DNA of 26,536 bases, taken from the NCBI GenBank assembly GCA_014729455.1, contig WJJW01000284.1:1-26536 (forward strand), in the 5' to 3' direction. Below the pieces are notes generated by a model. That model did no database searches, was not told the DNA's origin, and saw nothing but the letters and a program-made list of their open reading frames with translations. Below are positions 1,791-20,605 of this stretch, one piece after another. The stretch comes from Candidatus Eiseniibacteriota bacterium. GTDB lineage: Bacteria > Eisenbacteria > RBG-16-71-46 > CAIMUX01 > VGJL01. Made by a program: the position numbers and the translations under genes. How positions within the stretch are numbered: the stretch's first letter is position 1; each line of letters begins with the position of its first letter.

Positions 1791-1927
1791 GAATCGCTCA
1801 TCATTGTGTTGGATGCTGGGTTCGGGCTCCTCCCGAGACCCTCTCTGGCGGTATATACTCCGGCCTTTGCTGCCGGGTCCCCGGGGCCTGGAGGCGAAGC
1901 ACGAGCCAATTGCACACGGAGGTCTGG

Positions 1928-4444: not shown

Positions 4445-5824
4445 CTACACGGCCCCGCGGGTCTCCGGAGGCACCTCCCGCGCCGCCTGGTACCGATCCA
4501 GGAAGCCGGTATCGTAGCGTCCCCCGCGAAAGTCGAGGTGGGAGAAGACCTCGAGGTGGAACGGGATCGTCGTCGCCACCCCGTCCACGCGGGCTTCCTG
4601 GAGGGCCCGTTGCATCCGGTGCAGCGCCTCATCCCGGTCGCGGCCGTGGACGATCAGCTTCGCGACCATGGAGTCATAATGGGGGGAGATCACCGAGCCG
4701 GCAACGATGTGGCTGTCGATCCGAACGCCCGGCCCTCCGGAAAGATGGAAGTACGAGACCTCCCCGGGCGAGGGACGGAATCCCTTCTGGGGATCCTCCG
4801 CGTTGATCCGGCACTCGATCGAGTGCCCCGTGAAGCGGACCTCATCCTGCTTGATCGGGAGCTTCTCGCCGGCGGCGATCTCGATCTGGAGCTTGACGAG
4901 ATCGATCCCCGTGACCAGCTCGGTGACGGGATGCTCGACCTGGAGCCGGGTGTTCATCTCCATGAAGTAGAACTCGCCGGTCTTCTCCTCGAAGAGGAAC
5001 TCGATCGTCCCCAGGCTGTGATAGCCGATCCGCTTCGCCCCCTGCGCGGCGGCCTGTCCCATCCGCTTGCGGATCGAGGGGTTCAGAGCCGGGCTCGGCG
5101 CTTCCTCGATCAGCTTCTGGTGCCGACGCTGGATCGAGCAGTCGCGCTCGCCCAGGTGGATCACGTGACCGTGCCGATCGGCGACGACCTGGATCTCGAT
5201 GTGACGGGGCTGCTGGAGGAATCGCTCCATGTAGAGGGCACCGCTGTTGAAGGCGGCTTCCGCCTCCGCCTGGGCCATCGCGTAGAGCCGCTCGAGATCC
5301 TCGGGGCGGTGGACGACCCGCATCCCCTTCCCGCCACCGCCGTCCTTCGCCTTGACGATGACCGGATACCCGATCTCCTGCGCGGTCTTCTCCGCCTCCT
5401 TGACGTCCTTCAGAACGCCCGCGCTCCCCTTGAGGATCGGAACCCCCGCCTTGCGCATCTTCGCCCGCGCGACCGCCTTGTCCCCCATCTCGCGGATCGC
5501 GCGTGAGGGCGGGCCGATGAAGACGAGCCCGCTCGACTCGCAGGCTTCGGCGAACTGGGCGTTCTCGGCGAGGAACCCGTAGCCGGGATGGATCGCGTCG
5601 ACGTTGGTGATCTGCGCCGCCGACATGATCCGCGGGATGTTCAGGTAGCTGTCCCGGCTCCGGGGCGGCCCGATGCAGACCGACTCGTCGGCGGTCTCGA
5701 CCGGGAGGCTGTCGGCGTCCGCCTCGGAGTAGACGGCCACCGTCGCGATCCCGAGCTCCCGACAGGCGCGGATGATCCGGAGAGCGATCTCCCCCCGGTT
5801 GGCGATGAGGACCTTGCGGATCAT
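4445..5824 (-). CDS. accC: Acetyl-CoA carboxylase biotin carboxylase subunit, 459 aa
   Basis: [71 protein letters not shown]. Start trimmed from 5935 to ATG at 5824. Confidence 0.97.
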
Positions 5825-5832
5825 CGGGCGGC

Positions 5833-7020
5833 TCAGTACCGCACCATCCCGGGCGGGGTCTGGTCGCCGGGCCGGGCCTCTTCGGAGCCCTCGGCCCCCT
5901 CTTCCGCGCCTTCCCCGGTCTCGAAGATCGCCCACTTCGCGTCGCTCGACGACTGGATCCCGCGAACCCGAAGCTCGAACTCGGTCGGGCTCGTCGAGGC
6001 GGCCACCGCCTCCTCCAGCGTGATGAGGCCGCGCCGGTACAGCTTCATCAGAGACTGATCGAACGTCTGCATCCCGTACTGGGTGACCCCCTCATGGATC
6101 ACCTGCTTGATCAGCATCGTCTTCTCCGGGTCGAGGAGGTACTCCTGGATCGTCGGCGTCGTGACCATCACCTCGACCGCCGGGACGCGCCCGACCCCGT
6201 CCGAGCGGGGGATCAGCCGCTGGCTGATCACCGCCTGGAGCGTGCTCGAGAGGAGATAGCGCACCTCGTCGTGCTGGTGCGGCGGGTAGAAGGAGATGAT
6301 CCGGTTGACGGTCTGGGCGGCGTCGATGGTGTGGAGCGTGGAGAGGACCAGGTGGCCGGTGTCGGCGGCCATCAGCGCGACCGACATCGTGTCCCGATCC
6401 CGGATCTCCCCGAGCAGGATGACGTCGGGATCCTGCCGGAGAATGTGCTTCAGCGCGTGCGAGAACGTCTCGGTGTCGAGTCCGACCTCCCGCTGGCTGA
6501 TCATGCTCTTGTCGTCCCGATGGATGAACTCGATCGGATCCTCGATCGTGATGATGTTCCGCGGGTGGGTCCGGTTGATCGAGTCGATCATCGCCGCGAG
6601 GGTGGTCGACTTGCCGCTGCCGACGGTCCCGGTCACGAGCACGAGTCCGCGGGGCCGGAGCGCGAGCTGCTCGACGACCGGCGGGAGGTTCAGGTCCTCG
6701 ATCGCCGGGACCCCGAGCGGCACGTGCCGGATCGCCATCGCGATCGTCCCCCGCTGATAGTAGAAGTTGGACCGGAACCGGGCGAACCCCTGGACGCCGA
6801 ACGCGAAATCGATCTCGCGATCCCGGAGGAATTCCTCTTTCTGCTCCGCGGTCAGGATCCGGTCCAGCTCCCGTTCCATATCTTTCGTGGTGACCGGCGG
6901 GTGGTCGTCCAGCCCGACCAGCTCCCCGTCGACCCGCAAGGTCGGCCGGGTGCCGACCTTCAGATGGAGGTCCGATGCGCGGCGCTCGATCATCGCTTCG
7001 AGGATCTTGCGGAGTTCCAT
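5833..7020 (-). CDS. pilT: PilT/PilU-family type IV pilus ATPase
   Basis: ASDLHLKVG, Walker [55 protein letters not shown] at 7020 follows GAGGTG; GTG at 7026 is an alternative. The canonical PilT AIRNLIRE helix is not conserved, so PilT versus PilU is unresolved. Confidence 0.92.
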
Positions 7021-7030
7021 TCCCACCTCG

Positions 7031-8018: not shown

Positions 8019-9104
8019 TCAGGCCAGGACGTAGGACGCCGCCTCGCGAATCGAGGCCATCGGAACACGCCGGTGGACGCTAACATCGCCTATATTCCCT
8101 GTCAACACGAAGCGGATCCCGTCCGCCCGCGTCTTCTTGTCGAAGCGGATCCAGGGCTCCACCTCCTCCCAGGTGCAGCCCCGCGCTCGGGTCGGCAGCC
8201 GGTGGCGCTCGAGAAGACGCTCCACCCGATCGCGGAGCCCCTCCGGCGCGAGCCCCATCTGGTGGGAGAGCTGGCAGGCGGCGACCAGGCCGACGGCGAC
8301 CGCCTCTCCGTGCCGGATCTCCCCGAACCCGCGGCTCGCCTCCAGGGCGTGACCGAGCGTGTGGCCCAGGTTCAGAACCTGACGCAGGCCGGCTTCCCGC
8401 TCGTCCTCCTCCACGATCCGGGCCTTGACCGCGATCGCCCGGGCGATCATCTCCTCGAGGACGGGTTCCTCTCTCCTCCAGATCGGCTCGACCCGCTCTT
8501 CCAACAACGCAAAAAGGGCCGGATCGCCGATCAGCCCGGCCTTCACGACCTCCGCCAGTCCATTGGCCAGCTCCTCGTCCGGAAGGGTGGAGAGGAACTC
8601 GGGCGCCGCCAGGACCAGCCGCGGCTGGTGGAACGCGCCCACCAGGTTCTTCGCGCCCGCATAGTCGATCCCGACCTTCCCGCCGACGCTCGAGTCGACC
8701 ATCGCCAGGAGACTGGTCGGGATCTGGATGAAGGCGACGCCGCGCAGGTAGGTCGCCGCCGCGAATCCGGCGAGATCCCCCGCCACGCCTCCGCCGAGGG
8801 CGAGAATCCAGCCGTCCCGGCGAATCTCGACCTCGAGGCAGGCGTCGTACAGACCCAGCAACGTCTCCCAACGCTTCGACTTCTCTCCCGCCGGGAACAG
8901 GGACGTCCGGGTCGCGAGCCCCCGCCGCCGGAACCCCTCCCCCACCCGGTCCGCCCAGAGCGGCCCGACCCGATCGTCGCTCACCAGCAGCCCCTGCCCT
9001 TCCGATCCGATCTCCGGCAGCTCGATCCCGTTCCACTCGCGGAGAGGAGAGAGCAGGACGCGATAGGAGCGCTCCCCCAGATCGACGGCGATCTCGCGGC
9101 TCAT
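8019..9104 (-). CDS. aroB: 3-dehydroquinate synthase
   Basis: GEKSK, ALGGGVAGDLAGFAAATYLRG, PTSLLAMVDSSVGGK, EVVKAG, LNLGHTLGHALE, HGEAVAVG, DKK; GGAGG upstream. Confidence 0.97.
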   Translation of the reverse strand: MSREIAVDLGERSYRVLLSPLREWNGIELPEIGSEGQGLLVSDDRVGPLWADRVGEGFRRRGLATRTSLFPAGEKSKRWETLLGLYDACLEVEIRRDGWILALGGGVAGDLAGFAAATYLRGVAFIQIPTSLLAMVDSSVGGKVGIDYAGAKNLVGAFHQPRLVLAAPEFLSTLPDEELANGLAEVVKAGLIGDPALFALLEERVEPIWRREEPVLEEMIARAIAVKARIVEEDEREAGLRQVLNLGHTLGHALEASRGFGEIRHGEAVAVGLVAACQLSHQMGLAPEGLRDRVERLLERHRLPTRARGCTWEEVEPWIRFDKKTRADGIRFVLTGNIGDVSVHRRVPMASIREAASYVLA

Positions 9105-9270: not shown

Positions 9271-10482
9271 CTAACGGTAGGCCGTGGCCAGGTGCCGGAG
9301 AAGCTGCAGCTCCCGCTGCAGATCCTCGATCCGGCGTTCCAGCCGCCGTTCCCGGCCGCCGACCTGGCGCCTCTGGCCCTCCTTCCAGATCGCGTGGCCG
9401 CGGTCGCCGAGCCGGACCTCGAGGCTCCGGGACCTTCCGTTCCGTTCCAGCTCGATCCGGACGCTCCGGCCGGGCCCCGTCGCGGCGACCCGGGAGGTCA
9501 GCTCGTCCCAGCCGTCCAGTTCCTCGCCCGCGAACGCGGTCAGGCGATCCTCGGGCTGGATCCCCGCGAAGCCGGCCGGGCTCGCCTGGATCACCTCGGC
9601 GATGACCACCCCGCCGCCCGCGTCGGCGTCGGGATCGGGAAGACGCGCGCGCACACCGAGGAACCCCTCGCGACCGGCCAACCCGTCTCGGATCGAGTCG
9701 ACGCGGGCGGCGATCAGCGCCACCGGGACGACCCAGGCCGCATCGCCCGGGCGGGAGGCCCGCATGCAGTACTCCACCGGCCCTTTGCCGGACCGGGTGG
9801 CGAGCAGCAGGCTCTCCTGTCCTTCTCCGAGCAGGATGCCGATCCAGCGCCCCGCACCGTCGAGGGCCGCCGAACCCGCCATTCTCGGATCGAAGCTGGT
9901 GGCGAGGCGGGCTCTCCAGAACGGCTCGGTCGGGATCCGTCCGAGGATCCGGCTCACCGACAGGTGCGGCTCCCTTCGGTCTTCCTCGTAGCCGACGAGG
10001 AGCGTCCAGCTGCGGGGTGCGAGGGGATCCGGCGCGCCGCGGGGGATCGGCACGAGGTCGGCCGGATCACGCATCCGGATCACGCTCAACCCGATCTCCG
10101 GATCCTGCCCGAGATAGTCGGCCGGGTGCGGCTGTCCCGAACCGACCCGGACGTGCAGGCTGTCTCCCGGCTGGGCGAGATCGGCGACGGTGACGATCGT
10201 GCCATTCCGATCCCAAACGACTCCCGTGCCCTGGATCCGGAGCGCGGCGAGCGAATCGACCTTCCAGGGCGGGGGATCGTTCCAGTGAGCGCTCCACGGC
10301 CGGCGGACGTCGATCCGCACGATCCCCGGCTCGCTGGCGCGTAGGATCTCGTCGATCCGCTCGGTGAGGTCGTCCCCGACGGAGGGACGCGGAGCCAGAC
10401 CGACGAGTAGAAGACACAAGACCCCCGCCAGGAAAGGCCGGGGATGCCTAGAAGACGATGGTGACCCGGGAGTTCGGATCAC
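9271..10482 (-). CDS. Exported HtrA/DegS-like trypsin-fold plus PDZ protein with degenerate catalytic triad (pseudoprotease) and C-terminal coiled coil, 403 aa
   Basis: GTG at 10482 follows AGGAGG; hydrophobic signal FLAGVLCLLLVGLA. HtrA-like scaffold QGTGVVWDRNGTIVTVADL, GQDPEIGLSVIR, FDPRMAGSAALDGAGRWIGI; PDZ motifs GFLGV and SPAGFAGIQPED; tail ERRLERRIEDLQRELQLL. The ORF-track start at 11049 is rejected. Confidence 0.8.
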   Translation of the reverse strand: MIRTPGSPSSSRHPRPFLAGVLCLLLVGLAPRPSVGDDLTERIDEILRASEPGIVRIDVRRPWSAHWNDPPPWKVDSLAALRIQGTGVVWDRNGTIVTVADLAQPGDSLHVRVGSGQPHPADYLGQDPEIGLSVIRMRDPADLVPIPRGAPDPLAPRSWTLLVGYEEDRREPHLSVSRILGRIPTEPFWRARLATSFDPRMAGSAALDGAGRWIGILLGEGQESLLLATRSGKGPVEYCMRASRPGDAAWVVPVALIAARVDSIRDGLAGREGFLGVRARLPDPDADAGGGVVIAEVIQASPAGFAGIQPEDRLTAFAGEELDGWDELTSRVAATGPGRSVRIELERNGRSRSLEVRLGDRGHAIWKEGQRRQVGGRERRLERRIEDLQRELQLLRHLATAYR

Positions 10483-11128
10483 GAGGCCTCCTGTTCTGGT
10501 CGGCGGTCCCCACCTGGCGCCCGAGCGCGTCCTGGCTGTAGGCGGATCCCCAATCGAGATCCTCGGTGGGGGAAGGTTCCCCGTCGACGGGCTCCTCGGA
10601 CTCCAGCCTCTGGAGCATCTCGTCGACGAGATCCTCGAACTGGCCCGCTGCCGGCGCTTCGTCGGTCGCCGCAAGCGTCGCTTCCCCCCGAGCCGCTTCC
10701 GGCCGCGCCGTCTCGGGCGCCGGCGTCCGTTCCGCGACCGGAACCGGATCGGGCGTCCGCAGAGCGAGCATCGCTCCTCCCACTCCGATGGCGAGGCCGA
10801 GAACGAGCGCGGCTCCGGCGAGCCGAGGCGTCGCGATCCAGCCGGTCGGAAGAAGCGACCGGAATCGTTCGATCCAGCTCGGCTCCGGCGGACGGATCCC
10901 CTCGGCCTGATACCGGCGAACGGAGAGGAGCACGTCCTCGAGGAACCCTTCGGTCGGAGGGACTTCGGGAAGGTCGCGAACCCACTGGAGGTTCCGTTCC
11001 ACCTTCGCCAGCTCGGCGGAGCAGCGGCTGCAACGATCGAGATGATCATCCAAGCGACGCTCTTCTGCGAAGCTGAGTCTCCCGTCGAGACGGGAGGAGA
11101 AAAGGTCGCGTGCGCTCTTACAGTTCAT
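10448..11128 (-). CDS. Zinc-binding (zf-HC2/ZAS) transmembrane anti-sigma factor
   Basis: MNCKSARDLFSSRLDG..HLDRCSRC (HxxxCxxC), one TM segment LAGAALVLGLAIGVGGAMLAL, acidic extracytoplasmic tail; start overlaps the sigma gene stop. Confidence 0.9.
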   Translation of the reverse strand: MNCKSARDLFSSRLDGRLSFAEERRLDDHLDRCSRCSAELAKVERNLQWVRDLPEVPPTEGFLEDVLLSVRRYQAEGIRPPEPSWIERFRSLLPTGWIATPRLAGAALVLGLAIGVGGAMLALRTPDPVPVAERTPAPETARPEAARGEATLAATDEAPAAGQFEDLVDEMLQRLESEEPVDGEPSPTEDLDWGSAYSQDALGRQVGTADQNRRPRDPNSRVTIVF

Positions 11129-11747
11129 CGGCGGTCCCCTCTATTGCTGGATCGAGAATTTCTTTCAGGGCCAGGCGAGCCCGGTTGATGCGTGACCGAA
11201 CCGTTCCTCCGGGGATCTTGAGCACGTCCCCGATCTCCTCGTAGGAGAGCTGCTGGATGTCGCGGAGCACGATCACTTCCCGGAACTTGGGCGGAAGCTG
11301 GTCGATCGCCTTCGTGACCTTCTCCTCGACGTCGCGTCGGCGGTAGAGCCGCTCCGGACCCGGTTTGGCATCCGCGATGAACCCTCCCGAATCCCCGGTC
11401 GCTTCCAGGAGTTTGTCGAGGGAGACCATCCCCCGTGCGCGGACCCGGCGCCGGATCTCGTTCTTCGCGAGGTTCATCGCGATCGTGTAGAGCCATGTGC
11501 TGAACTTCCCGCTCGGTCGGTACCGCTCCCGGTGGATGAACACCCGCAGGAACGTCTCCTGCGCGATTTCCTGGGCGCGGTCCCGATCGCTGATCAGGCG
11601 GGACACCACGTTGATGACCCGACCCTGGTAACGCGATACCAATGCGGAGAACGCCTCCTCGGCGCCGCGGACGATCTCCTCCATCAGCTCCTCGTCGGAG
11701 AGCGAAGCGTAGTCTCGGGCGGACGAGCGGTCGTCCCGACCAACCAT
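11118..11747 (-). CDS. ECF sigma-70 family sigma factor (RpoE/SigW-like)
   Basis: SDEELM..AFSALVSRY, AQEIAQETFLRVF, KFSTWLYTIAMNLAKNEIRRR, LRDIQQLSYEEIGDVL.IPGGTVRSRINRAR; GAGGAG SD. Confidence 0.95.
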   Translation of the reverse strand: MVGRDDRSSARDYASLSDEELMEEIVRGAEEAFSALVSRYQGRVINVVSRLISDRDRAQEIAQETFLRVFIHRERYRPSGKFSTWLYTIAMNLAKNEIRRRVRARGMVSLDKLLEATGDSGGFIADAKPGPERLYRRRDVEEKVTKAIDQLPPKFREVIVLRDIQQLSYEEIGDVLKIPGGTVRSRINRARLALKEILDPAIEGTADEL

Positions 11748-11768
11748 GCGTTCTCCTCTATCGGGGGC

Positions 11769-11797
11769 TTGTACCCCGCGTCCTCATCGAGGGTTCC
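11769..11797 (-). promoter_or_regulatory. Candidate ECF-type autoregulatory promoter upstream of the sigma gene
   Basis: Minus strand GGAAC (11797-11793), 18 nt, GTACAA (11774-11769), upstream of the sigma SD. Resembles the generic ECF GGAAC...GT consensus, but the spacer is about one base long. Confidence 0.25.
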
Positions 11798-13472
11798 CGG
11801 AGTCGGCGGGGCTCTTCCCCTCCCAGAGCTGCAGCAGCTCCCGGGTCTCCCGGTCCGCGGGAGCGGTACGGAGCCGATTCCGCAGCAGCCGGACCCCGGC
11901 CTCGACCTTCCCCGCCGATCGGTACGCCCGGGCCAGATGCATGAGGATCTCCGGCTCGTCCGGGTCAAGATCGCGCGCCCGTTCGAGTTGCGTCACCGCC
12001 TCTTCGTGCCGGCCGAGCTGGTAGAGGACCCACCCGTAGCTGTCCACATAGGCGGCCGTCTCCGGTTCCAGCTCCGCCGCCCGGCGGGTCCACTCCAGGG
12101 CCTCCTCCAGCGCCACGCCGTTCGTCGCGCACATGTAACCAGCGTAGTTCAGGGCCATTGCGTCATCCGGATGCGCCTCGATCAGGCGGCGCAGCCAGAC
12201 CAGCGCGGCCTCGGTCCGTCCTTGACGGTCCTCGAGGACGGCCAGGCGGAAGAGGATCTCCCGATCCGTCTCGTTCCCTTCCAGGATCTTCTCGAGCTGC
12301 GTCCGGGCGCCGTCGCCGTCCCCCTGCTCGTCGAGGAGGATCGCGGCGAGCAGGCGGGCCTGCCGGTTCTCGGGATCCAGCCGGTGGACCGTCTTCAATG
12401 CGGCCAAGGACTCCTCCGTCCTCCCGAGCCGTGCCAGCGAGCGGGCGTAGTACCAAACAGCCTTCGGGCTCTCCGGCTCCGCCGCTGCCATCTCCTCGGC
12501 CACGCGGAGGGCGGCCTCCACGCTGTCCGCGCGGCTCAGGGCCCTCCAGAGCCAGTCGCCCGAGTCCTGCAGGTCGGGATCGAGGCGGCGCGCTCGACGG
12601 AAGAGAGCGATCGCTTCGCGCAACCGCTCCTGGCCGAACCGGACCACCCCGAGCTGCATCGGCACCCGCGGATCGCTCGGATCGTCGATCATCAGCCGCT
12701 CGAGATCCGGGATCGCCTCCTCCTGGCGGTTGAGCAGGATCAGGATCCGCGTGAGTTCGCGCCGCAGGTCGGTCCGGTGCGGCACCGCCTCCAGCGCCCG
12801 CCGGCAAGCCGATGCGGTCACGCGGGAGGGACCGAGCCTCCAGCAGAGGGCCAGCAGGTGATCCGCCGCACCCGGGTAGCCGGGAGCCTGCACCAGCGCC
12901 GCCAGATAGTCCTCCAGCGCTTCCTGGGGACGGCCCAGCCGGGTCCGGAGCGTTCCCCGCCGCATCAGCAGGTACGGGCTCTCCGGCTCGATCCCGCCCT
13001 CGCTCGGCTCCACCAGCCGGCACGCCTCTTCGAGCTTTCCGATCGACTCCAGCGCGAGCAGGAGGTTCACCCGATGGCTCCGTTCCTCCGGGGCGAGCTC
13101 CATCGCGCGGCGCAACGGCTCCAGCGCTTCGGAGGACCGGGAAAGCTGCAGCAGGGCCTGCCCGAGGACCGCATGGCTCTCCGCCTCTTCGGGAGCGAGA
13201 CGGATCGCTTCGCGGGCGGGCTCGAGCGCCTCCTTCGGACGGCGCGCCTCGAGCAGCACGCGGGCCAGCTCCCGCGAAACGTCCGGAGCGTCGGGATCGA
13301 GCGTTCGGGCGGCTCTCAGCTCCTGGGCGGCCTCCTCCAGACGTCCCTCCTCCGCGAGCTGGATCCCTCGGAGGAAGCGATCCCAGGCTTCCGGCCCCTC
13401 TCCCTCGGCCGGAGCGCCCGACAGGAGCAGGGGGACCCCGACGGCGAACAGAACGGTGAACAACCTCTTCAC
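11784..13472 (-). CDS. Exported multi-TPR protein, 562 aa
   Basis: GTG after AAGGAG; signal peptide MKRLFTVLFAVGVPLLLSGAPA; many TPR-like helical repeats with ...LDP/LAP/LEP turns. C-terminal block ALNYAGY..EEALEWTRRAAELEP..AAYVDSYGWVLYQLG is typical of a widespread envelope TPR family (Pseudomonas LbcA-like, from memory). Confidence 0.9.
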   Translation of the reverse strand: MKRLFTVLFAVGVPLLLSGAPAEGEGPEAWDRFLRGIQLAEEGRLEEAAQELRAARTLDPDAPDVSRELARVLLEARRPKEALEPAREAIRLAPEEAESHAVLGQALLQLSRSSEALEPLRRAMELAPEERSHRVNLLLALESIGKLEEACRLVEPSEGGIEPESPYLLMRRGTLRTRLGRPQEALEDYLAALVQAPGYPGAADHLLALCWRLGPSRVTASACRRALEAVPHRTDLRRELTRILILLNRQEEAIPDLERLMIDDPSDPRVPMQLGVVRFGQERLREAIALFRRARRLDPDLQDSGDWLWRALSRADSVEAALRVAEEMAAAEPESPKAVWYYARSLARLGRTEESLAALKTVHRLDPENRQARLLAAILLDEQGDGDGARTQLEKILEGNETDREILFRLAVLEDRQGRTEAALVWLRRLIEAHPDDAMALNYAGYMCATNGVALEEALEWTRRAAELEPETAAYVDSYGWVLYQLGRHEEAVTQLERARDLDPDEPEILMHLARAYRSAGKVEAGVRLLRNRLRTAPADRETRELLQLWEGKSPADSGNPR

Positions 13473-13503
13473 ATCGATCTCCTTGCGGCGGAACGTACGC
13501 GCG

Positions 13504-13512
13504 ATCCTAGCA
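13504..13512 (-). promoter_or_regulatory. Putative extended -10 promoter for the TPR-sigma-anti-sigma-PDZ unit
   Basis: Minus strand TGc-TAGGAT about 30 nt upstream of the TPR start; no convincing -35. Confidence 0.3.
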
Positions 13513-13532
13513 CAGCGGCCGCGGGAGCCTTT

Positions 13533-13562
13533 TTGACAGGGTGATGAACCGGCTCCTATACT
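13533..13562 (+). promoter_or_regulatory. Near-consensus sigma70 promoter for the lipoprotein-FadL operon
   Basis: TTGACA (13533-13538), 18 nt, TATACT (13557-13562), followed by SD AAAGGAG at 13584-13590. Confidence 0.7.
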
Positions 13563-13600
13563 CCGGTGTAGACCCGTTCGGGGAAAGGAGCAAGCCGCTC

Positions 13601-14074
13601 ATGCATCGAATTCGTCCCATCCTGCTCGTGTTCGTCCTCGCCGCACTCGCCGGGGGGGGCTGCTATACCATGCTCCGGCACCCCGCGACCCACGACATGG
13701 TCGACGTCCACGGGACGCAGCGTCCCTGCGCCGACTGCCACGTGGACGAGGACCTGTACGGGTACACCGAGGCGTACGGATCCTCCTGGTATTCCTATTA
13801 TCCGGCTCCGTGGGCCTCGTATTACGGGAACCCCTGGTGGTACGACGACTACTGGTACTACCGGCCCGGCGACGACGCGCCGGTCCTCCCCCCGGCCCGG
13901 GAGGGGCGCAACGTCTGGAGCCGCAGCGGCGGCGGCCCGGGTTTCATCCCGTATCAGGGCAACCCGAGCCCCGATTCGCCTCCGTCGGGGAAGGAGGAGA
14001 GATCCCGCTCCGACGACGAGGACGAGAAGCCGGAAAAGAAGAAAGAGAAGAAGAGGAACCTCTGGGGTCGATGA
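13601..14074 (+). CDS. Small lipoprotein with a single CxxCH motif, Tyr/Trp-rich tract and charged disordered tail, 157 aa; function unknown
   Basis: ATG at 13601 follows AAAGGAG (the ORF-track start at 13541 lies inside the promoter). Lipoprotein signal MHRIRPILLVFVLAALAGGG-C, CADCH at residues 43-47, then YGYTEAYGSSWYSYYPAPWASYYGNPWWYDDYWYY. Confidence 0.85.
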   Translation: MHRIRPILLVFVLAALAGGGCYTMLRHPATHDMVDVHGTQRPCADCHVDEDLYGYTEAYGSSWYSYYPAPWASYYGNPWWYDDYWYYRPGDDAPVLPPAREGRNVWSRSGGGPGFIPYQGNPSPDSPPSGKEERSRSDDEDEKPEKKKEKKRNLWGR

Positions 14075-14117
14075 GACCGGGCGGGCCGCGCCCCCCGAGC
14101 GATCGAAGGAGGCGACG

Positions 14118-15428
14118 GTGTTGAAACGACGGACGAGGGGCCGGTCCCCGTGGAGGGGGCCGGGTTTCTGTTTGCTGATGGTGATGCTCCTGGCTGGGCT
14201 CGCCCCGGACGCAGCGCGCGCCCAGGGAGAGACGCAGAACCTCCCCGAGATCCCCCTGACCCACCGGACACCGGTCGCCGCGCGCTACGCCGGGATGGGC
14301 GGCGCGTCGCTGACCATCGCGGACGATCATTCCGCCTGTCTGGCCAACCCCGCGACGCTCGGCCTGGTGCGTGGGATCGAGCTCGCCGCCGGATTCTCGC
14401 ACCAGGATGCGGACCGGGAGGTCCGGTACCTGGGCAGCCCCACCCGAGCGGAGTACGGCAAGACCCGCTTCGCCGATCTCGGCTTCGCCTACCCGTTCCC
14501 GACGTACCGGGGGCGGTTCGTCATCGGCTTCCAGTACGGCAGAATCAGCAGCCTCGATTCGGACTTCTACCAGCGGAGCCCCGCGTCGAGCGATCAGCCG
14601 TTCGAGGAGGAAGGGATCTACGAGACGGGGGGGCTCGGCGCCTACGCCGTGTCCGCGGCTCTCCAGGTCAGCCCGAACGTGACCCTCGGCGCCTCCGGGA
14701 TCATCCTGAGCGGCGACAGCTTCCGGGAACGGACCTACCGCTATGACGCGTCGGGCGGGGGGTTCTCCGACCTCTACGAGACGACCGATGTCGACATCAG
14801 CGGCCTGACGGGATCGGTCGGCGCCCTGGTCGAGCTCGACCCCGCGATCCGCTTCGGCCTCCTCATCCGGTTCCCCGAATCGCTCGACTTCGACGGGATC
14901 CTCTACGAGGAGATCGACGGCGAGGACTCGGCGGAGTTCAGCATCACCGATGAGATCGACCTGCCGTTCCGACTGGGCGCCGGACTGGCGCTGGCTCGCC
15001 AGAACCTGATCGTCTCCGCCGACGCCCTCTTCACCGACTGGACGCAGGTCCGCTTCGCCGGTCCCGTCCGAACCGTCGACCGGGAGAACGCCTACCGGGA
15101 GACCGTCGACCTCCACTTCGGGGCCGAGTACCTCATCCCGTTCTCGACTCCGGTGCGGATCCGCGCGGGGTACGCGCTGCAGCCGCTCGCCTACCGCCTG
15201 CTGCTGACCGACGTCCAGGCACGTCGCTACGAGGAGGCCCGGTTCGACCGGGACCGCTACGCGTATACCTTCGGCCTCGGCGCTCTGCTCGGCGAATCGC
15301 TGACCCTGGATCTCGCCTATCAGCACGGTGGATACGAGAGAAGCGCTTCCCATCCGACCGGGCTGCGGTACCGGGAGGAGGTCACCGATCGACGCGTTCT
15401 GGCGACGCTCACGCTACGCGTGAACTGA
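14118..15428 (+). CDS. FadL/OmpP1/PorV-superfamily outer-membrane beta-barrel
   Basis: AAGGAGG SD, signal peptide ending AARA, N-terminal hatch motif AARYAGMGGASLTIADDHSACLANPATL, alternating beta-strands, RIRAGY, YTFGLG..LDLAY. Start could be GTG 14118 or TTG 14121. Confidence 0.85.
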   Translation: MLKRRTRGRSPWRGPGFCLLMVMLLAGLAPDAARAQGETQNLPEIPLTHRTPVAARYAGMGGASLTIADDHSACLANPATLGLVRGIELAAGFSHQDADREVRYLGSPTRAEYGKTRFADLGFAYPFPTYRGRFVIGFQYGRISSLDSDFYQRSPASSDQPFEEEGIYETGGLGAYAVSAALQVSPNVTLGASGIILSGDSFRERTYRYDASGGGFSDLYETTDVDISGLTGSVGALVELDPAIRFGLLIRFPESLDFDGILYEEIDGEDSAEFSITDEIDLPFRLGAGLALARQNLIVSADALFTDWTQVRFAGPVRTVDRENAYRETVDLHFGAEYLIPFSTPVRIRAGYALQPLAYRLLLTDVQARRYEEARFDRDRYAYTFGLGALLGESLTLDLAYQHGGYERSASHPTGLRYREEVTDRRVLATLTLRVN

Positions 15429-15443
15429 TCGGTCTCGATCCCG

Positions 15444-16277
15444 TCAGGAGCCGGCGTCCTCTTCCGGCGGCGGGGCCGGCTGCGGATCGGGATTTCGATT
15501 GAGGATCGGGTCGGTTCGGTCTTCGAGGCGCAGCCGCTCCAGGGCGTCCCCCGCCGCGTTCTGCTCCGCCTCCTTCTTGTTCCGGCCCTGCCCCTTGCCG
15601 AGCAGCGACCCGCGGACCGACACGTCGACCGTGAACAGCTTCATGTGATCCGGACCGATCTCGCTCACCACCCGATAGCGGGGGTGGGTCTTGTGCTTCG
15701 CCTGGACATACTCCTGCAGGAGGCTCTTGAAGTTGAGGTGGGCCCGATCCTCCAGGATCGTCGTCGCGGTCGCGAGCAGGTGCGTCTCGACGAAGCGCCG
15801 CGCCCTGCGGATCCCGCGATCGAGGTAGATCGCGCCGACGACGGCCTCGAAGGAGTCTGCGAGGATGGACGCCCGCTCCGCTCCGCCGGAGTCGCGCTCG
15901 CTGTCGCTGAGGAGGACGAACTCGCCGAGCCCCATCTGCTCGGCACGCGTTGCGAGCACTCCCTTGCTGACCAGGAGGGATTTCTTCTTCGTCAGCTCCC
16001 CTTCGCGATCGAGCGGAAAGCTGCGGTAGAGGTGCTCGATGACGATCAGCTCCAGAACCGAATCGCCCAGGAACTCGAGGCGTTCGTTCGAGCGGTTCGG
16101 ATCGCCCCCGTTGCTCCCGAGGAACGAGCGGTGGGTCAACGCCTGTTCCAGGATCCCCCGGTCGCCGAAACGGATCCCCGTCCGGCGTTCGAAGGCGGAG
16201 AGCGCATCCCGGATCGCCTGCTGCTTGACCTGCTTTTCTGAAGGCGGCTTCCGTCGCCAGATCCATGGAAACCGCAT
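15444..16277 (-). CDS. rnc: Ribonuclease III
   Basis: QALTHRSF, NERLEFLGDSVL, LADSFEAVVGAIYLDRG, dsRBD NFKSLLQEYVQ..GPDH..GQGRNKKEAEQNAA. Confidence 0.97.
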   Translation of the reverse strand: MRFPWIWRRKPPSEKQVKQQAIRDALSAFERRTGIRFGDRGILEQALTHRSFLGSNGGDPNRSNERLEFLGDSVLELIVIEHLYRSFPLDREGELTKKKSLLVSKGVLATRAEQMGLGEFVLLSDSERDSGGAERASILADSFEAVVGAIYLDRGIRRARRFVETHLLATATTILEDRAHLNFKSLLQEYVQAKHKTHPRYRVVSEIGPDHMKLFTVDVSVRGSLLGKGQGRNKKEAEQNAAGDALERLRLEDRTDPILNRNPDPQPAPPPEEDAGS

Positions 16278-16327: not shown

Positions 16328-17578
16328 TCAGCCGGTTCCGTCCTCGACCTTCCGAAGCGCGAGGCTCACGTTGTGGCCCCCGAAGCCGAGCGAATTGGTC
16401 AGGGCACCGTGGACGGGCCTTCGCTCCGCTTTGTTCGGAACGTAGTTGAGGTCGCAGTCGGGATCGGGATTCTCGTAGTTGATCGTCGGAGGGATGACTC
16501 CCTCTATCATGGTCAGGACCGTCGCGATCAGCTCGACGCCCCCCGCCGCGCCGAGCAGGTGCCCGGTCATCGACTTCGTGGAGCTCACCGCGAGTCGGTC
16601 CGCATGGTCCCCGAACACCGATCGGATCGCCACCGTCTCGTACTTGTCGTTCAGAGGGGTCGAGGTCCCATGCGCGTTGATGTAGTCGATCTCCTCCGGA
16701 TTCATTCCGGCGCCCGAGAGCGCGAGCTTCATGGCCCGAGCGGCTCCCTCGCCCGCCGGAGCCGGAGCGGTGATGTGGTGCGCGTCGGCCGTGGAGCCGT
16801 ATCCGACGATCTCCGCCAGCACCTTCGCGCCACGCGCCCGCGCGCTCTCGAGCTGCTCCAGGACGACGATCCCGGCCCCCTCGGCCATCACGAACCCGTC
16901 TCGCTCCTTGTCGAACGGACGGCTGGCCCTCCCCGGTTCGTCGTTCCGGCTCGAGAGCGCCCGCATGTTCGAGAATCCCGCCAGAGAGAGCGGCATGATC
17001 GGCGCCTCGCTCCCCCCCGCGAGAACGACGTCCAGATCCCCGTCCCGGATCAGACGGAACCCCTCTCCGATCGCGTGGGCGCCGGAGGAACAGGCCGAGA
17101 CCGTCGCGAAGTTGCTCCCTTTCGCCCCGTACTCGATCGAAAGCTGCCCGGAGGCCATGTCGACGATCATCATCGGGACGAAGAAGGGGCTCACACGCGC
17201 GGGCCCCTTCTTGAACAGGATCCGCTGCTGCTGCTCGAAGGTCGTGATTCCGCCGATGCCCGAGCCGACGATCACCCCGAACCGCTCCCCGTCGACCTCC
17301 TCGACGTTCAAACCGGAGCTGTGGACCGCCTCCCGACCGGCCACGATGGCGTACTGGACGAACGGATCGGTCCGCTTCGCCTCCTTCGGTTCCATGTGGT
17401 CGGTCGGCTGGAATCCCTTCAGCTCACCGGCGAACCGGACGTCCTGATCGGACGTGTCGAACCGGGTGATCGGCGCGATCCCCCCTCGTCCCTCGACGAG
17501 GGAGTTCCAAAAGCTCCCGACGGAGAGGCCGATCGGGGTCAGCGCCCCCATGCCGGTGACAACGACTCGATTGGGCAT
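16328..17578 (-). CDS. fabF: 3-oxoacyl-ACP synthase II
   Basis: [21 protein letters not shown] (catalytic Cys), [38 protein letters not shown]. Confidence 0.97.
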
Positions 17579-17594
17579 GCTCGTACTCCAGGGT

Positions 17595-17840
17595 CTAGTT
17601 CTTCGCCTCGAGATGCTCCTTCAAGTACTGGATGGCGTCCTTGACCCGCTCCATCTTCTCTGCGGCTTCGTCGGGGATCTCGATCTCGAACGCCTCCTCG
17701 AGCGCCATGACCAGCTCGACGGTATCGAGCGAATCGGCGCCGAGGTCGTCGATGAACGAAGCCTCGGGGGTCACCTTCTCCGGAGCCACCCCAAGCTGCT
17801 CGACGATGATGTCACGGATCTTCTGTTCGTAGTTTTCCAT
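17595..17840 (-). CDS. acpP: Acyl carrier protein, 81 aa
   Basis: [33 protein letters not shown] phosphopantetheine site; ATG at 17840 after GGAGGA (trimmed from 17876). Confidence 0.97.
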
Positions 17841-17872
17841 CGATCCATCCTCCCGGGGACCATCATTCCCCA

Positions 17873-18652
17873 TCACGACATCGACATTCCGCCATCCACC
17901 GCAAGAACCTGCCCCGTGACATACCTCGCCTCGTCGGAGGCGAGATACGAAACGGCGTGCGCCACGTCCTCCGGTTGCCCGAAGTAGCGCAGGGGGATGT
18001 TTCCCCGCAGCGCCTCCTGGGCCTCCTGCGGCAGAGCCTCGGTCATCGAGGTCTCAATGAACCCCGGGGCCACGGCGTTCACCGTGATCCCCCGTTCGGC
18101 CAGCTCCTTGGCCACCGACTTCGTGAATCCGATCAAGCCCGCCTTGGCCGCCGTGTAGTTCGCCTGGCCCTTGTTGCCCGTCAGGCCGACGACCGAGGTG
18201 ACGTTGATGATCCTCCCCCAACGCGCCTTCATCATCCCTCTGGCGAACCCCTTCGTGCACAAGAAGGCGCCGCGAAGGTTGATTCCGAGCACCGTGTCCC
18301 ATTCTTCCGGGCGCATCCGGAGGACCAGGTTGTCCCGCGTGACCCCCGCGTTGTTGACGAGGATCTGGACCGGTCCCATCTCCTCGGTGACCCGTCCGGC
18401 CAGCGCCTCCACCTGTTCCGGCTCGGAGACGTCGCAGCGAACGTGGAGACAACGGCGCCCGAGCGCAAGGATCTCCCGGACCGCGGGCCCGTCGTCCTCC
18501 CCGGACCGATCGACGAGCACGAGGTCGTTGCCGTCGCGGGCGAGACGCAGCGCGATGCCCCGTCCGATCCCCCGGCTTCCCCCGGTGCCCAGCGCGATCC
18601 GGGCGGGCTCGGGATCCCGACCCGACCGGCCCTGGTTCGCGGGATCGCTCAT
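17873..18652 (-). CDS. fabG: 3-oxoacyl-ACP reductase, 259 aa
   Basis: [53 protein letters not shown] at 18652 overlaps the fabD stop (ATGA); the extension to 19042 is junk. Confidence 0.96.
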
Positions 18653-19581
18653 GGCTCCCCTCCTGCGTCGAAACGTTCGATCTCCTCCGCCTTCCCGACC
18701 GTGGCGGTCGTCGCCCCGCGATCCGTCGCCCGAACGAGACCGGACAGCACGCGTCCCGAGCCGATCTCGACGAATCGTTCGAAGCCGTCCTTCCGCATCC
18801 GCCGGATCGTCTCCTCCCATCGCACGGGCGAGAGGAGCTGGCGGGCGAGGCTCTCTCGGATCTCCGCCGACTCCCGCGTCGGACCGGCGCTCTCGTTCGC
18901 GTAGACGGGCACCTGTGCGGGAGAGATCGTCGACGCGTCGAGGGCTTCCCGCAGCCCGCGGGCCGCCGCCTCCATCAACGGAGAGTGGAACGCCCCCGCG
19001 ACGACGAGTCCGATCACCCTCTTCGCGCCCGCCTCCTTGCACTTCGTCATCGCCCGCTCCACCGCGTCGACCTCGCCGGAGATCACGATCTGGCCCGGCG
19101 AGTTCACGTTCGCCGGAACGACGACCCCGTCGACCTCATCGAGAGCGCTCCGGATCTCCTCGTGAGAGAGGCCGAGCACCGCCGCCATCGTTCCCGGACG
19201 CTCGCGACCGGCCTGGTGCATCAGCTCCCCGCGACGCCGCACCAGCCGAAGGCCGTCCTCGAAGCGGAGACTCCCCGCCGCGACGTAGGCGGTGTACTCG
19301 CCCAGGCTGTGTCCCGCAGCGGCCTGGAACGACAGCGGGGCGCGCGCCTCGAGCGCACGGAGAACGGCGATGCTGTGGACGAACAGGGCCGGCTGGGTGT
19401 TCCGCGTCTCCCGGAGCTCCTCCTCGGGGCCCTCGAAGCAGATCCGGGAGAGGGGGGCGTCGAGGACCCGATCCGCCGTCTCGAAGACTTCCCGCGCCTC
19501 CGGATACCGGTCGACGAGGTCCCGCCCCATGCCGACCTGCTGCGAGCCTTGTCCTGGGAAGAGGAACGCCGTCTTCACCAC
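18649..19581 (-). CDS. fabD: Malonyl-CoA:ACP transacylase
   Basis: FLFPGQGSQ..GMG, TRNTQPALF, GHSLGEY, ANVNSPGQIVISG, GAFHSPLM; start GTG 19581 or 19578. Confidence 0.97.
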   Translation of the reverse strand: MVKTAFLFPGQGSQQVGMGRDLVDRYPEAREVFETADRVLDAPLSRICFEGPEEELRETRNTQPALFVHSIAVLRALEARAPLSFQAAAGHSLGEYTAYVAAGSLRFEDGLRLVRRRGELMHQAGRERPGTMAAVLGLSHEEIRSALDEVDGVVVPANVNSPGQIVISGEVDAVERAMTKCKEAGAKRVIGLVVAGAFHSPLMEAAARGLREALDASTISPAQVPVYANESAGPTRESAEIRESLARQLLSPVRWEETIRRMRKDGFERFVEIGSGRVLSGLVRATDRGATTATVGKAEEIERFDAGGEP

Positions 19582-19597
19582 CGCCCGGTCCCCCCGT

Positions 19598-20605
19598 CTA
19601 CCAACGGACCACCGCCGCGCCCCACGTCAATCCCCCGCCGAAGCCCACGAGCGCGACGAGGTCTCCGCTGTGGAGCCGGCCGGCCTTCCGCGCCTCGTCC
19701 AGCGCGATCGGGATCGAAGCTGCGCTGGTATTACCATACTTCTGGATGTTGGTGAATACCTTTTCCGGCGAGATGCCGAGCCGCTTCGCGGTCGCTTCGA
19801 TGATCCGGAGGTTCGCCTGATGCGTGACGAGCAGGTCGACGTCCTGCGCGCCGTATCCCGCCAGCCCGAGCGCCTTCACGCACTCGTCCGCCATCGTCCG
19901 CACCCCCATCTTGAACACCTCGTTGCCTCTCATGTGGATGCAATGGAGATGGTTGCGGACCGTCTCCTCGGAGGCCGGGAGCTTGCTTCCGCCGGCCGGC
20001 TGCTCGATCAAGGAGCCGAAGTTCCCGTCGGCGCCGAGGGTCAGCGAGAGGATCCCGTGCTCTTCGTCCCCCGGTTGGAGGATCGCCGCGCCCGCGCCGT
20101 CGGCAAGGAGGATGCAGGTCGTGCGATCCGACCAGTTCGTGACGCGGGAGAGAAGCTCCGCGCCGACCACGAGCACCGTGTTCGCTCGCCAGGAGGCGAT
20201 CATCCCTTGGGCCACGCTCAACGAATAGAGGAAGCCGGAGCAAGCCGCGCTGACGTCGAAAGCGAACGCGCGCTTCGCCCCGAGCTTCGACTGCAGCGTG
20301 CAGCCCATCGAGGGGAACACCTGGTCCGGGGTGACGGTCGCGCAGATGATCCCGTCCAGATCCTCGGCGCCGACCCCGGCCTCCTCCATCGCCGTCTTCG
20401 CCGCCGGGAGGGCGAGGTCGCTCGTGACCAGCCCCTCCGGGGCGATGCGGCGTTCCCGGATCCCCGTCCGCGTGACGATCCACTCGTCGGAGGTGTCGAC
20501 GATCTTCTCCAGATCCGCGTTCGTCAGAACGGGATCCGGAACCGCCGAACCGGTGCCCGCGAAACGGACCGGCCTAACCGAGGACTTGTCGCTCTGGACG
20601 TTCAC
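19598..20605 (-). CDS. fabH: 3-oxoacyl-ACP synthase III
   Basis: DTSDEWIVTRTGIRERR, AACSGF, HQANLRII, YGNTSAASIP, GFGGGLTWG. GTG after GAGGAG overlaps the plsX 3' end by 32 nt. Confidence 0.97.
   Translation of the reverse strand: MNVQSDKSSVRPVRFAGTGSAVPDPVLTNADLEKIVDTSDEWIVTRTGIRERRIAPEGLVTSDLALPAAKTAMEEAGVGAEDLDGIICATVTPDQVFPSMGCTLQSKLGAKRAFAFDVSAACSGFLYSLSVAQGMIASWRANTVLVVGAELLSRVTNWSDRTTCILLADGAGAAILQPGDEEHGILSLTLGADGNFGSLIEQPAGGSKLPASEETVRNHLHCIHMRGNEVFKMGVRTMADECVKALGLAGYGAQDVDLLVTHQANLRIIEATAKRLGISPEKVFTNIQKYGNTSAASIPIALDEARKAGRLHSGDLVALVGFGGGLTWGAAVVRW

Follow-up and report, generated by a model that had tools for sequence, protein, structure and literature searches.

A small CxxCH lipoprotein and a FadL-superfamily barrel form a conserved gene pair, and a candidate haem-bearing outer-membrane module, in Eisenbacteria and other FCB-group phyla

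This work concerns two adjacent genes in a stretch of 26,536 nucleotides (hereafter, the window), positions 1 to 26,536 of contig WJJW01000284.1 from a Candidatus Eiseniibacteriota assembly (GenBank GCA_014729455.1). Both lie on the + strand: the first (13601–14074) encodes a 157-amino acid lipoprotein of an uncharacterised family with a CxxCH motif, and the second (14118–15428), 43 nt further on, a 436-amino acid beta-barrel of the FadL superfamily, from a clade that we call the pair-barrel clade. Our preferred reading, which we hold with only slightly more confidence than doubt, is that they specify an outer-membrane module made up of barrel and lipoprotein, with a bis-His haem c as an accessory, and conserved across the Fibrobacterota-Chlorobiota-Bacteroidota (FCB) group. 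The genes and their motifs, their conservation and linkage, and the fold and clade of the barrel are established here. The window's own assembly is a metagenome-assembled genome (MAG) of 508 contigs and 75.7% completeness, and most of the genomes compared are also MAGs, so that absence from any of them means "not found".

The lipoprotein was recognised by its signal peptide and a lipobox ending in Cys21, which are conserved in all homologues. In an alignment of 20 lipoproteins from the class of the window's organism, on which all counts of invariant positions are based, Cys21 opens the near-invariant peptide C-Y-T-x-L-x-H-P (residues 21–28; 13661–13684), with G20, C21, T23, L25, H27 and P28 invariant. 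It is followed by a single c-type haem attachment motif, CADCH (residues 43–47; 13727–13741), whose C43, C46 and H47 are also invariant. An earlier note on this DNA, made from the sequence alone, had placed CADCH 22 residues past the lipidated Cys and had pointed to HPATHDMVDVH as a possible source of a distal ligand; both positions are correct, the second segment occupying residues 27–37. A Tyr/Trp-rich block comes next (residues 52–87; 13754–13861), with the core Y-Y-x-x-P-W-W-Y-D-D-Y-W and invariant Y74, Y75, W79 and W80, and then two copies of a G/K-R-x-x-W-x-R motif. The first, GRNVWSR (residues 102–108; 13904–13924), has R103 in at least 90% of the 20 sequences and an invariant W106, and the second, KRNLWGR, is at the extreme C-terminus (residues 151–157; 14051–14071) behind a low-complexity Lys/Glu-rich tail, and is conserved as K-R-x-L-W-G-R, with R-R in some lineages.

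Neither Pfam nor NCBIfam contains a match to the lipoprotein, and a profile search of the PDB with its alignment gave only sub-threshold similarities, to CxxCH segments of multihaem cytochromes (E of at least 0.28). A word-based search found four relatives, a profile search located the lipoprotein in 40 of the 61 class genomes, and the matches in the ESM Atlas were unnamed clusters alone, from Zixibacteria and Krumholzibacteria. Using an exhaustive profile search, we retrieved 523 cluster representatives at E ≤ 1e-3, the best 150 of which are all shorter than 300 amino acids. We also assembled a set of 80 loci, with one genome per species, by a pattern scan with the N-terminal peptide alone and without using CxxCH for selection; these span Eisenbacteria, Latescibacterota, Krumholzibacteriia, Ignavibacteria, Kryptonium, KSB1, Calditrichaeota, Zhuqueibacter and others. 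The search for homologues that the earlier note had asked for thus uncovers a family across many FCB-group phyla. One Ignavibacteria MAG (29% G+C) contains two family lipoproteins in tandem before the barrel (L073:2909-3955 and L073:3986-4585), the first starting with G-C-Y-T-Q-I, extremely Tyr-rich and without CxxCH, and the second with CxxCH.

Exactly one CxxCH was present in all of the first 20 class loci, in 78 of the 80 peptide-selected loci, at 19–37 residues past the lipid Cys, and in 148 of the best 150 of the 523 cluster representatives. Because the 80 loci were picked without reference to the motif, its frequency among them is far beyond chance. The 80-locus and 150-representative samples nevertheless lean to CxxCH forms, since the profile was built from such forms, and we therefore carried out a census anchored on the barrel in the 61 class genomes, 48 of which contain a pair-clade barrel at 250 bits or more. 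In eight of the nine genomes first missed by the lipoprotein search we inspected the DNA upstream of the barrel, finding a diverged homologue in seven, and the census was completed by inspection of the remaining 20 earlier lipoprotein matches. As a result, 35 of 47 class lipoproteins contain CxxCH and 12 do not. The latter fall in three taxonomic families (f2, f8 and f13), two of which, f2 and f8, also hold CxxCH-bearing members; this implies at least three losses, and the unrelated sequence types suggest that there were probably more than three.

The forms without CxxCH still have the barrel next to them, and in sequence they retain G-C-Y-T, the aromatic block and the two R-x-x-W-x-R motifs; all 12 genomes that carry them keep genes for Cytochrom_C_asm proteins (PF01578). 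Retention of the Tyr/Trp block in these forms indicates that its role is independent of the haem motif. The test of CxxCH conservation had therefore a double outcome, with the motif kept in most homologues and lost in a quarter or so of the class lipoproteins, and the strict proposal that CxxCH is always present, and the lipoprotein always beside the barrel, is refuted by the CxxCH-less forms and by the barrel-less loci described below. In one Eisenbacterial lineage (L049, L055, and also L163 and L172) a Ser-rich stretch takes the place of the CxxCH segment, and H-P, the aromatic block, a C-terminal A-W-G-R and the adjacent barrel are kept.

A His at position +6 from the lipid Cys, His27 in the window, accompanies the motif closely. 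It occurs in 180 of 181 CxxCH forms, being shifted by two residues in the exception, as against five of 14 CxxCH-less forms (Fisher's p = 2e-11, a value that describes a pattern rather than a probability, as the sequences are related). His+6 and CxxCH were lost together in several lineages. This covariation indicates that His27 and CxxCH serve one site, and on the simplest reading of the sequences that site is a bis-His haem, for which His27 would supply the distal axial ligand.

The barrel was identified from sub-threshold matches to family models and from its predicted fold. It scores 22.5 bits with Toluene_X/FadL (PF03349), below the gathering threshold of 29.7, and 31 bits with PorV_fam (NF033709), for which the cut-off is 90; its best NCBIfam match is BamG (NF053685), at 63.4 bits against a cut-off of 250. 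Many close homologues have a precomputed PF03349 match, and databases label homologues as long-chain fatty acid transport proteins. An AlphaFold2 model built from a 30-sequence alignment had a predicted local distance difference test score (pLDDT) of 87. Foldseek placed the BamG proteins of F. johnsoniae and B. thetaiotaomicron first and then FadL, and VIA-align gave Z scores of 36–37 with FadL, TbuX and CymD, 35–36 with BamG and 27 with PorV, with a root mean square deviation of 2.7–3.0 Å over 330–357 residues to channels of the FadL/TodX/TbuX/CymD type. The hatch motif NPA (N77, P78, A79) is invariant. The FadL-type barrel of the earlier note is thus borne out, by a predicted fold with Z of 35–37 to FadL and BamG and by the NPA motif. 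A search of the PDB with the single sequence found no match and a profile was required, whose top match was 9hiv_F (1.4e-16), chain F of BtBAM as assigned via the data-availability statement of its paper, followed by FadL-family transporters (ca. 1e-10), FjBamG (1e-4) and PorV (3.5e-4). FadL residue 1 aligns to residue 46 of the model, and the predicted mature N-terminus is near residue 36, by which the protein would run on for about 10 residues more than FadL, in a stretch modelled at pLDDT below 50; BamG has been reported to have an extension of that length (PMC12578637).

We then placed the barrel in a maximum likelihood tree of 55 barrels, from a quick LG+G4 search in which several long branches were flagged. 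Thirty-four pair barrels form one clade and the canonical and Eisenbacterial BamG-like genes form another, both with a Shimodaira-Hasegawa-like approximate likelihood ratio test (SH-aLRT) value of 99, and E. coli FadL and eight PorV/PorQ-family genes from the window's genome, all of them above the 90-bit cut-off, fall elsewhere. Likewise, a search with the BamG model of five other lipoprotein-carrying genomes found a separate gene at 228–274 bits in four (from Ignavibacteria, Kryptonium and a Cytophagia-labelled MAG); the pair barrels of the searched genomes, where located, score only 49–68 bits. Eisenbacteria also have a separate BamG-like gene, with an N-terminus resembling that of canonical BamG. 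Together, sequence and model place the window's barrel in a distinct clade of the FadL superfamily, with a predicted FadL fold and N-terminal hatch. The phylogeny suggested by the earlier note, against FadL, PorV and BamG, hence keeps the barrel in the superfamily and assigns it to neither BamG nor PorV. An Eisenbacterial BamG orthologue is ruled out by the separate clade, the 63.4 bits and the canonical BamG elsewhere in the same genomes, and PorV by the 31 bits, the Z of 27, the eight separate PorV/PorQ genes and the tree. A second FadL-superfamily barrel of the window's genome (L103; G000:C190:3588-4715) scores 45 bits with BamG and 99 bits with the pair-barrel profile, and is on a long branch outside all the named clades.

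Barrel and lipoprotein are closely linked. The barrel is directly downstream of the lipoprotein, on the same strand, in the 19 complete class loci and in about 63 of the 80 cross-phylum loci, and the lipoprotein is also present in 47 of the 48 class genomes that contain a pair-clade barrel, with 12 genomes having neither. The linkage anticipated in the earlier note therefore extends across genomes and phyla, although the pairing is not universal: nine loci with ample flanking DNA, from KSB1, Calditrichaeota, Zhuqueibacter, a Cytophagia-labelled MAG and two unclassified MAGs, are without a FadL-type barrel. In five of these nine there is an open reading frame (ORF) of about 800 amino acids just downstream of the lipoprotein, and the Cytophagia-labelled MAG has a pair-clade barrel at another locus. 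A protein of about 250–280 amino acids is encoded directly upstream of the lipoprotein in four loci (L035:3215-3988, L085:3216-3968, L084:1442-2266 and L067:3129-3977), which come from the Cytophagia-labelled MAG, one KSB1, one Calditrichaeota and one Ignavibacterium. From its aromatic end (Y-F-E-F or similar) and weak similarity to YjbH, this is probably a small barrel. In 16 of the 80 loci a gene cluster is seen at this position and on this strand. In the KSB1 and Calditrichota loci the small barrel takes the place of the FadL-type one as partner of the lipoprotein, and the Ignavibacterium locus also keeps the downstream FadL-type barrel; no homologue of the small barrel was found in the window's genome.

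We next examined whether haem could be attached to the lipoprotein. System I attaches haem to accessible periplasmic CxxCH motifs with little other specificity. PF01578 matches of the size of CcmF and CcmC are present in the five same-family genomes (5/5), and in one of them, G003, Pfam confirmed CcmF (CcmF_C, 224 bits) and an adjacent CcmE; for ResB (System II), the relatives gave marginal matches only, inside the CcmF frame. A PF01578 match was found in all 61 class genomes and in the five carriers from other phyla, so that a phyletic comparison between carriers of the lipoprotein and cytochrome c assembly genes offers no contrast, every genome examined having those genes. The sole PF01578 match of the window's assembly (L001; G000:C316:7863-11483) is directly upstream of hemA (glutamyl-tRNA reductase), an arrangement that we take to be HemX-like rather than CcsA/CcmC, and it was not counted as a maturation gene; the long ORF at this site reads through both genes. 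Judging from its sequence, the window's organism is rich in multihaem cytochromes, with at least 22 ORFs containing two or more CxxCH, including ORFs of 26, 19, 16, 13 and 10 motifs. Multihaem ORFs are found on contigs C398, C153, C508, C362 and C269, three of them together on C398. The check for Ccm/Ccs genes called for in the earlier note thus succeeded in the relatives, with CcmF, CcmE and CcmC-like proteins, and not in the window's own incomplete assembly. Of the refuting conditions named in that note, none that could be computed overturned its idea. Considering the motif and these genes, we think it reasonably likely that haem is covalently attached to the lipoprotein.

The two genes are co-directional and preceded by a sigma-70-like site, TTGACA-18-TATACT (13533–13562, +), that matches 11 of 12 consensus positions and that we predict to be the promoter from this match. 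It is the only such site in 13300–15700, as compared with 0.1 expected from shuffles, in agreement with the strong promoter claimed in the earlier note. On the other side, the unit is bounded by the convergent RNase III gene rnc (15444–16277, −; Ribonucleas_3_3, 5e-38, plus a dsrm domain), with 15 nt between the stop codon of the barrel (15426–15428) and that of rnc. The coordinates and the rnc match agree with the layout given previously, of two genes ending convergently at rnc. The unit does have exactly two genes, although a divergent gene has to be added as a conserved neighbour. This gene (11784–13472, −) encodes a periplasmic protein of 562 amino acids matched by multiple tetratricopeptide repeat (TPR) families, and a homologous divergent gene is found upstream of the pair in 43 of the 80 loci, in two different contexts. 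The first consists of anti-sigma, extracytoplasmic function (ECF) sigma and TPR genes, the pair, rnc in convergent orientation and a gene that corresponds in position and size to the fabF of the window; in the second, DUF4837 and TPR genes precede the pair, and genes for HU and an S49 peptidase come after it. The TPR gene has thus stayed beside the pair through rearrangement.

In the window, the TPR gene is part of a divergent operon (9271–13472, −) with an ECF sigma factor (11118–11747), a zf-HC2 anti-sigma factor (10448–11128) and a Trypsin_2-PDZ protein; sigma/anti-sigma genes are neighbours of the pair in about 29 of the 80 loci. The N-terminal part of the ORF at 9271–11049 is rich in Arg and resembles an out-of-frame artefact, and the real protease-like gene probably starts near a hydrophobic segment at about residue 205. 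A terminator-like hairpin with a T-run at 14141–14163 (+) is within the sequence coding for the signal peptide of the barrel, and it is probably due to chance (0.8 expected). The G+C content of the window is 66–72%, and the surrounding genes (at 1910–3340, 4445–5935, 5833–7026, 8019–9104 and 16328–20605) are housekeeping genes, for an LptF/G permease, a biotin carboxylase, a T2SSE/PilT-like ATPase, 3-dehydroquinate synthase and a fatty-acid synthesis cluster with a fabF-like frame (unchecked against Pfam), a short-chain reductase and fabH.

From these data we infer haem attachment, a physical complex, its topology and a role, as follows. The nearest precedent is BamG-BamH, in which the conserved lipidated N-terminus of BamH occupies a groove of the FadL-type barrel BamG (PMC12611786; PMC12578637; structures PDB 9HIV/9HJ3, 9HJM and 9N2D). 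By analogy with the N-terminus of BamH, the lipoprotein, largely unstructured when alone, would fold against the barrel and dock on it through its lipidated C-Y-T-x-L-x-H-P peptide and Tyr/Trp block. CADCH would bear one covalent c-type haem, here and in about three quarters of the class carriers, with His27 probably supplying the sixth ligand of a bis-His site. The haem would be within some 25 residues of the lipid anchor, at the interface of membrane and barrel and on the periplasmic side. In the Bacteroidota, surface export of lipoproteins follows a rule of acidic residues after the lipid Cys (PMC12578637). No such residues come after the lipid Cys here, so this rule does not apply, which argues for a periplasmic orientation, with the caution that a rule taken from Bacteroidota may not hold in these phyla. 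The putative haem is an accessory, since its motif disappeared several times from lipoproteins that kept the barrel partner, the aromatic block and the R-x-x-W-x-R motifs; repeated loss of the motif with retention of the rest shows that haem cannot be the core of the module, and leaves an envelope channel, an assembly factor or a sensor as candidate core roles. As for the role, for which our certainty is low, the barrel might be a FadL-like envelope channel or an assembly factor, with the haem adding redox chemistry or sensing at its periplasmic face.

Several observations weigh against this reading. The AlphaFold2 model of the lipoprotein folded alone is mostly disordered and of low confidence (pLDDT 57.6). 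CxxCH is missing from 12 of 47 class lipoproteins, so that the role of the motif, whatever it is, can be dispensed with, and linkage to a FadL-type barrel is absent in the loci from KSB1, Calditrichota, Zhuqueibacter and some other MAGs. The coupling of His+6 to CxxCH would equally fit a Cys2His2 metal site, and its counts are not phylogenetically independent. The window's own assembly, 75.7% complete, gave no recognisable CcmF, CcmC or ResB, and tblastn there with the CcmF and CcmC of relatives was also empty. Lastly, and as weak evidence, no fused lipoprotein-barrel protein was found among proteins of 358–2000 amino acids.

A further-reaching version of the module, which we put forward tentatively and would sooner doubt than assert, is that the pair is the core of an FCB-specific outer-membrane machine, sometimes with the TPR protein or the second small barrel. 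In it, a bis-His haem c would be held at the membrane interface by the lipid anchor and by the Tyr/Trp block docked on the barrel, creating an outer-membrane redox site. Such a site might oxidise or reduce a lipid-soluble molecule passing the lateral gate of the barrel, or report the redox state of the envelope.

The alternative that survives best, which we consider unlikely, is an accessory pair of BAM, the machinery for beta-barrel assembly, with a BamG paralogue and a BamH-like lipoprotein that would take part in the assembly of outer-membrane proteins or surface lipoproteins, CxxCH being a structural or regulatory extra. The likeness to BamG-BamH is considerable: in both cases a FadL-fold barrel from the FCB group has as its partner a lipoprotein that could dock on it by a conserved lipidated N-terminus, the mature window barrel is predicted to extend some 10 residues beyond FadL residue 1, as described for BamG, and the genes may form an operon, as in the putative operon reported for the BamG2-BamH2 paralogues (PMC12578637). 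BamG is, moreover, the best match of the barrel in NCBIfam (63 bits), in the PDB profile search (9hiv_F, 1.4e-16) and in Foldseek, the core of the module persists without CxxCH, and a TPR protein is a frequent neighbour. However, the BamG score is far below 250 bits, VIA-align shows no preference for BamG over FadL transporters, and the window's barrel belongs to a clade separate from that of the Eisenbacterial BamG-like genes, with canonical BamG (228–274 bits) coexisting elsewhere in the same genomes. The partners also differ, because BamH is large and has a carbohydrate-binding fold, whereas the window's lipoprotein has 157 amino acids, is mostly disordered and Tyr/Trp-rich, contains CxxCH and is without detectable similarity to BamH or to any PDB chain.

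Still less probable, in our estimation, is an envelope sensor without haem, in which a metal site or a redox-switch disulfide, made up from CxxC(H) and His27, would signal stress, in the manner of NlpE or RcsF, to the adjacent operon of ECF sigma factor, anti-sigma factor and dead HtrA. NlpE relies on a CxxC motif and the lipoprotein RcsF is held in place by barrels, so there are precedents for small outer-membrane lipoproteins with important Cys residues, and here a stress-sigma operon adjoins the pair. Indeed, the TPR, ECF sigma, zinc-binding anti-sigma (zf-HC2) and Trypsin_2-PDZ genes are divergent from the pair, with sigma neighbours in about 29 of 80 loci, the disordered lipoprotein has a long tail that could span the periplasm, and the joint loss of His+6 and CxxCH in several lineages would suit a metal site. 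Yet there is no similarity to RcsF or NlpE in sequence or fold, and the His after the second Cys, kept in every CxxCH form examined, is a hallmark of haem c and not of a CxxC switch. Every carrier examined has cytochrome c assembly proteins, the linkage to sigma genes is limited to a subset of loci, many carrying the pair in the DUF4837/HU/S49 context without the sigma operon, and the promoter is sigma-70-like rather than ECF-like.

The earlier note had also entertained a split porin-cytochrome. As a Cyc2-like conduit, the pair would have its monohaem lipoprotein plugging the barrel or threaded through it and carrying electrons across the outer membrane, so that the cell could oxidise Fe(II) or carry out extracellular reduction. 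We find this improbable, and do not think that the pair is a dedicated trans-outer-membrane electron conduit. Fused Cyc2 has a single CxxCH near its N-terminus, joined to a barrel, and in the window a single near-N-terminal CxxCH is encoded beside a barrel gene; as with Cyc2 and the MtrAB porin-cytochrome conduits, there is a genetic coupling between a CxxCH polypeptide and an outer-membrane barrel, the organism has many multihaem cytochromes, and the Tyr/Trp block could in principle relay charge. Unlike those systems, however, the pair is split into two genes, its barrel has a plugged FadL fold, with hatch and NPA motif, instead of an open porin, and its context is one of housekeeping and envelope genes (rnc, fabF, ECF sigma, HU, SppA) and not respiratory. 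The lipoprotein lacks the acidic surface-export signal past the lipid Cys. Furthermore, the haem motif is dispensable, having been lost in at least three families that keep both the pair and cytochrome c assembly proteins, and this counts against a Cyc2-like conduit.

Finally, an ordinary FadL-type transporter of hydrophobic substrates that happens to be next to an unrelated lipoprotein, with no joint function, would account for the FadL hallmarks, the Z of 36–37 to FadL, TodX and TbuX and the database labels of long-chain fatty acid transport, but is hardly credible given an adjacency kept across several phyla and two rearranged contexts and the co-occurrence of both genes in 47 of 48 class genomes, with 12 having neither. 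The barrel shares with the FadL/TodX/TbuX/CymD transporters the fold (Z 36–37) and the NPA hatch motif, and differs from them in its separate clade and in a dedicated lipoprotein partner that those transporters lack. The PorV/PorQ proteins of the type IX secretion system are likewise of the FadL superfamily and the FCB group, although the window's barrel is set apart from them by its 31 bits against 90, its Z of 27 and the eight separate PorV/PorQ genes of the genome.

Our full-text searches of the literature yielded no description of a FadL-type barrel with a CxxCH lipoprotein or a redox cofactor, which agrees with the statement of the earlier note that none was known, and the two 2025 papers on BAM (PMC12611786; PMC12578637) describe no partner with a haem motif. 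Pairs of a FadL-type barrel and a lipoprotein have been a recognised theme only since 2025, with BamG-BamH, and the pair in the window is a second and phylogenetically distinct one. It is widespread in uncultured FCB phyla, and its lipoprotein has an apparent minimal haem c site beside the lipid anchor. Because the family has no Pfam or NCBIfam model, hundreds of genes are labelled hypothetical or are misannotated as fatty-acid transporters. If haem is bound, the lipoprotein would be a very small membrane-anchored cytochrome, with 157 residues and a conserved part (residues 21–108) of fewer than 90. The natural variants without the haem motif offer a ready comparison between the core role of the module and its redox role.

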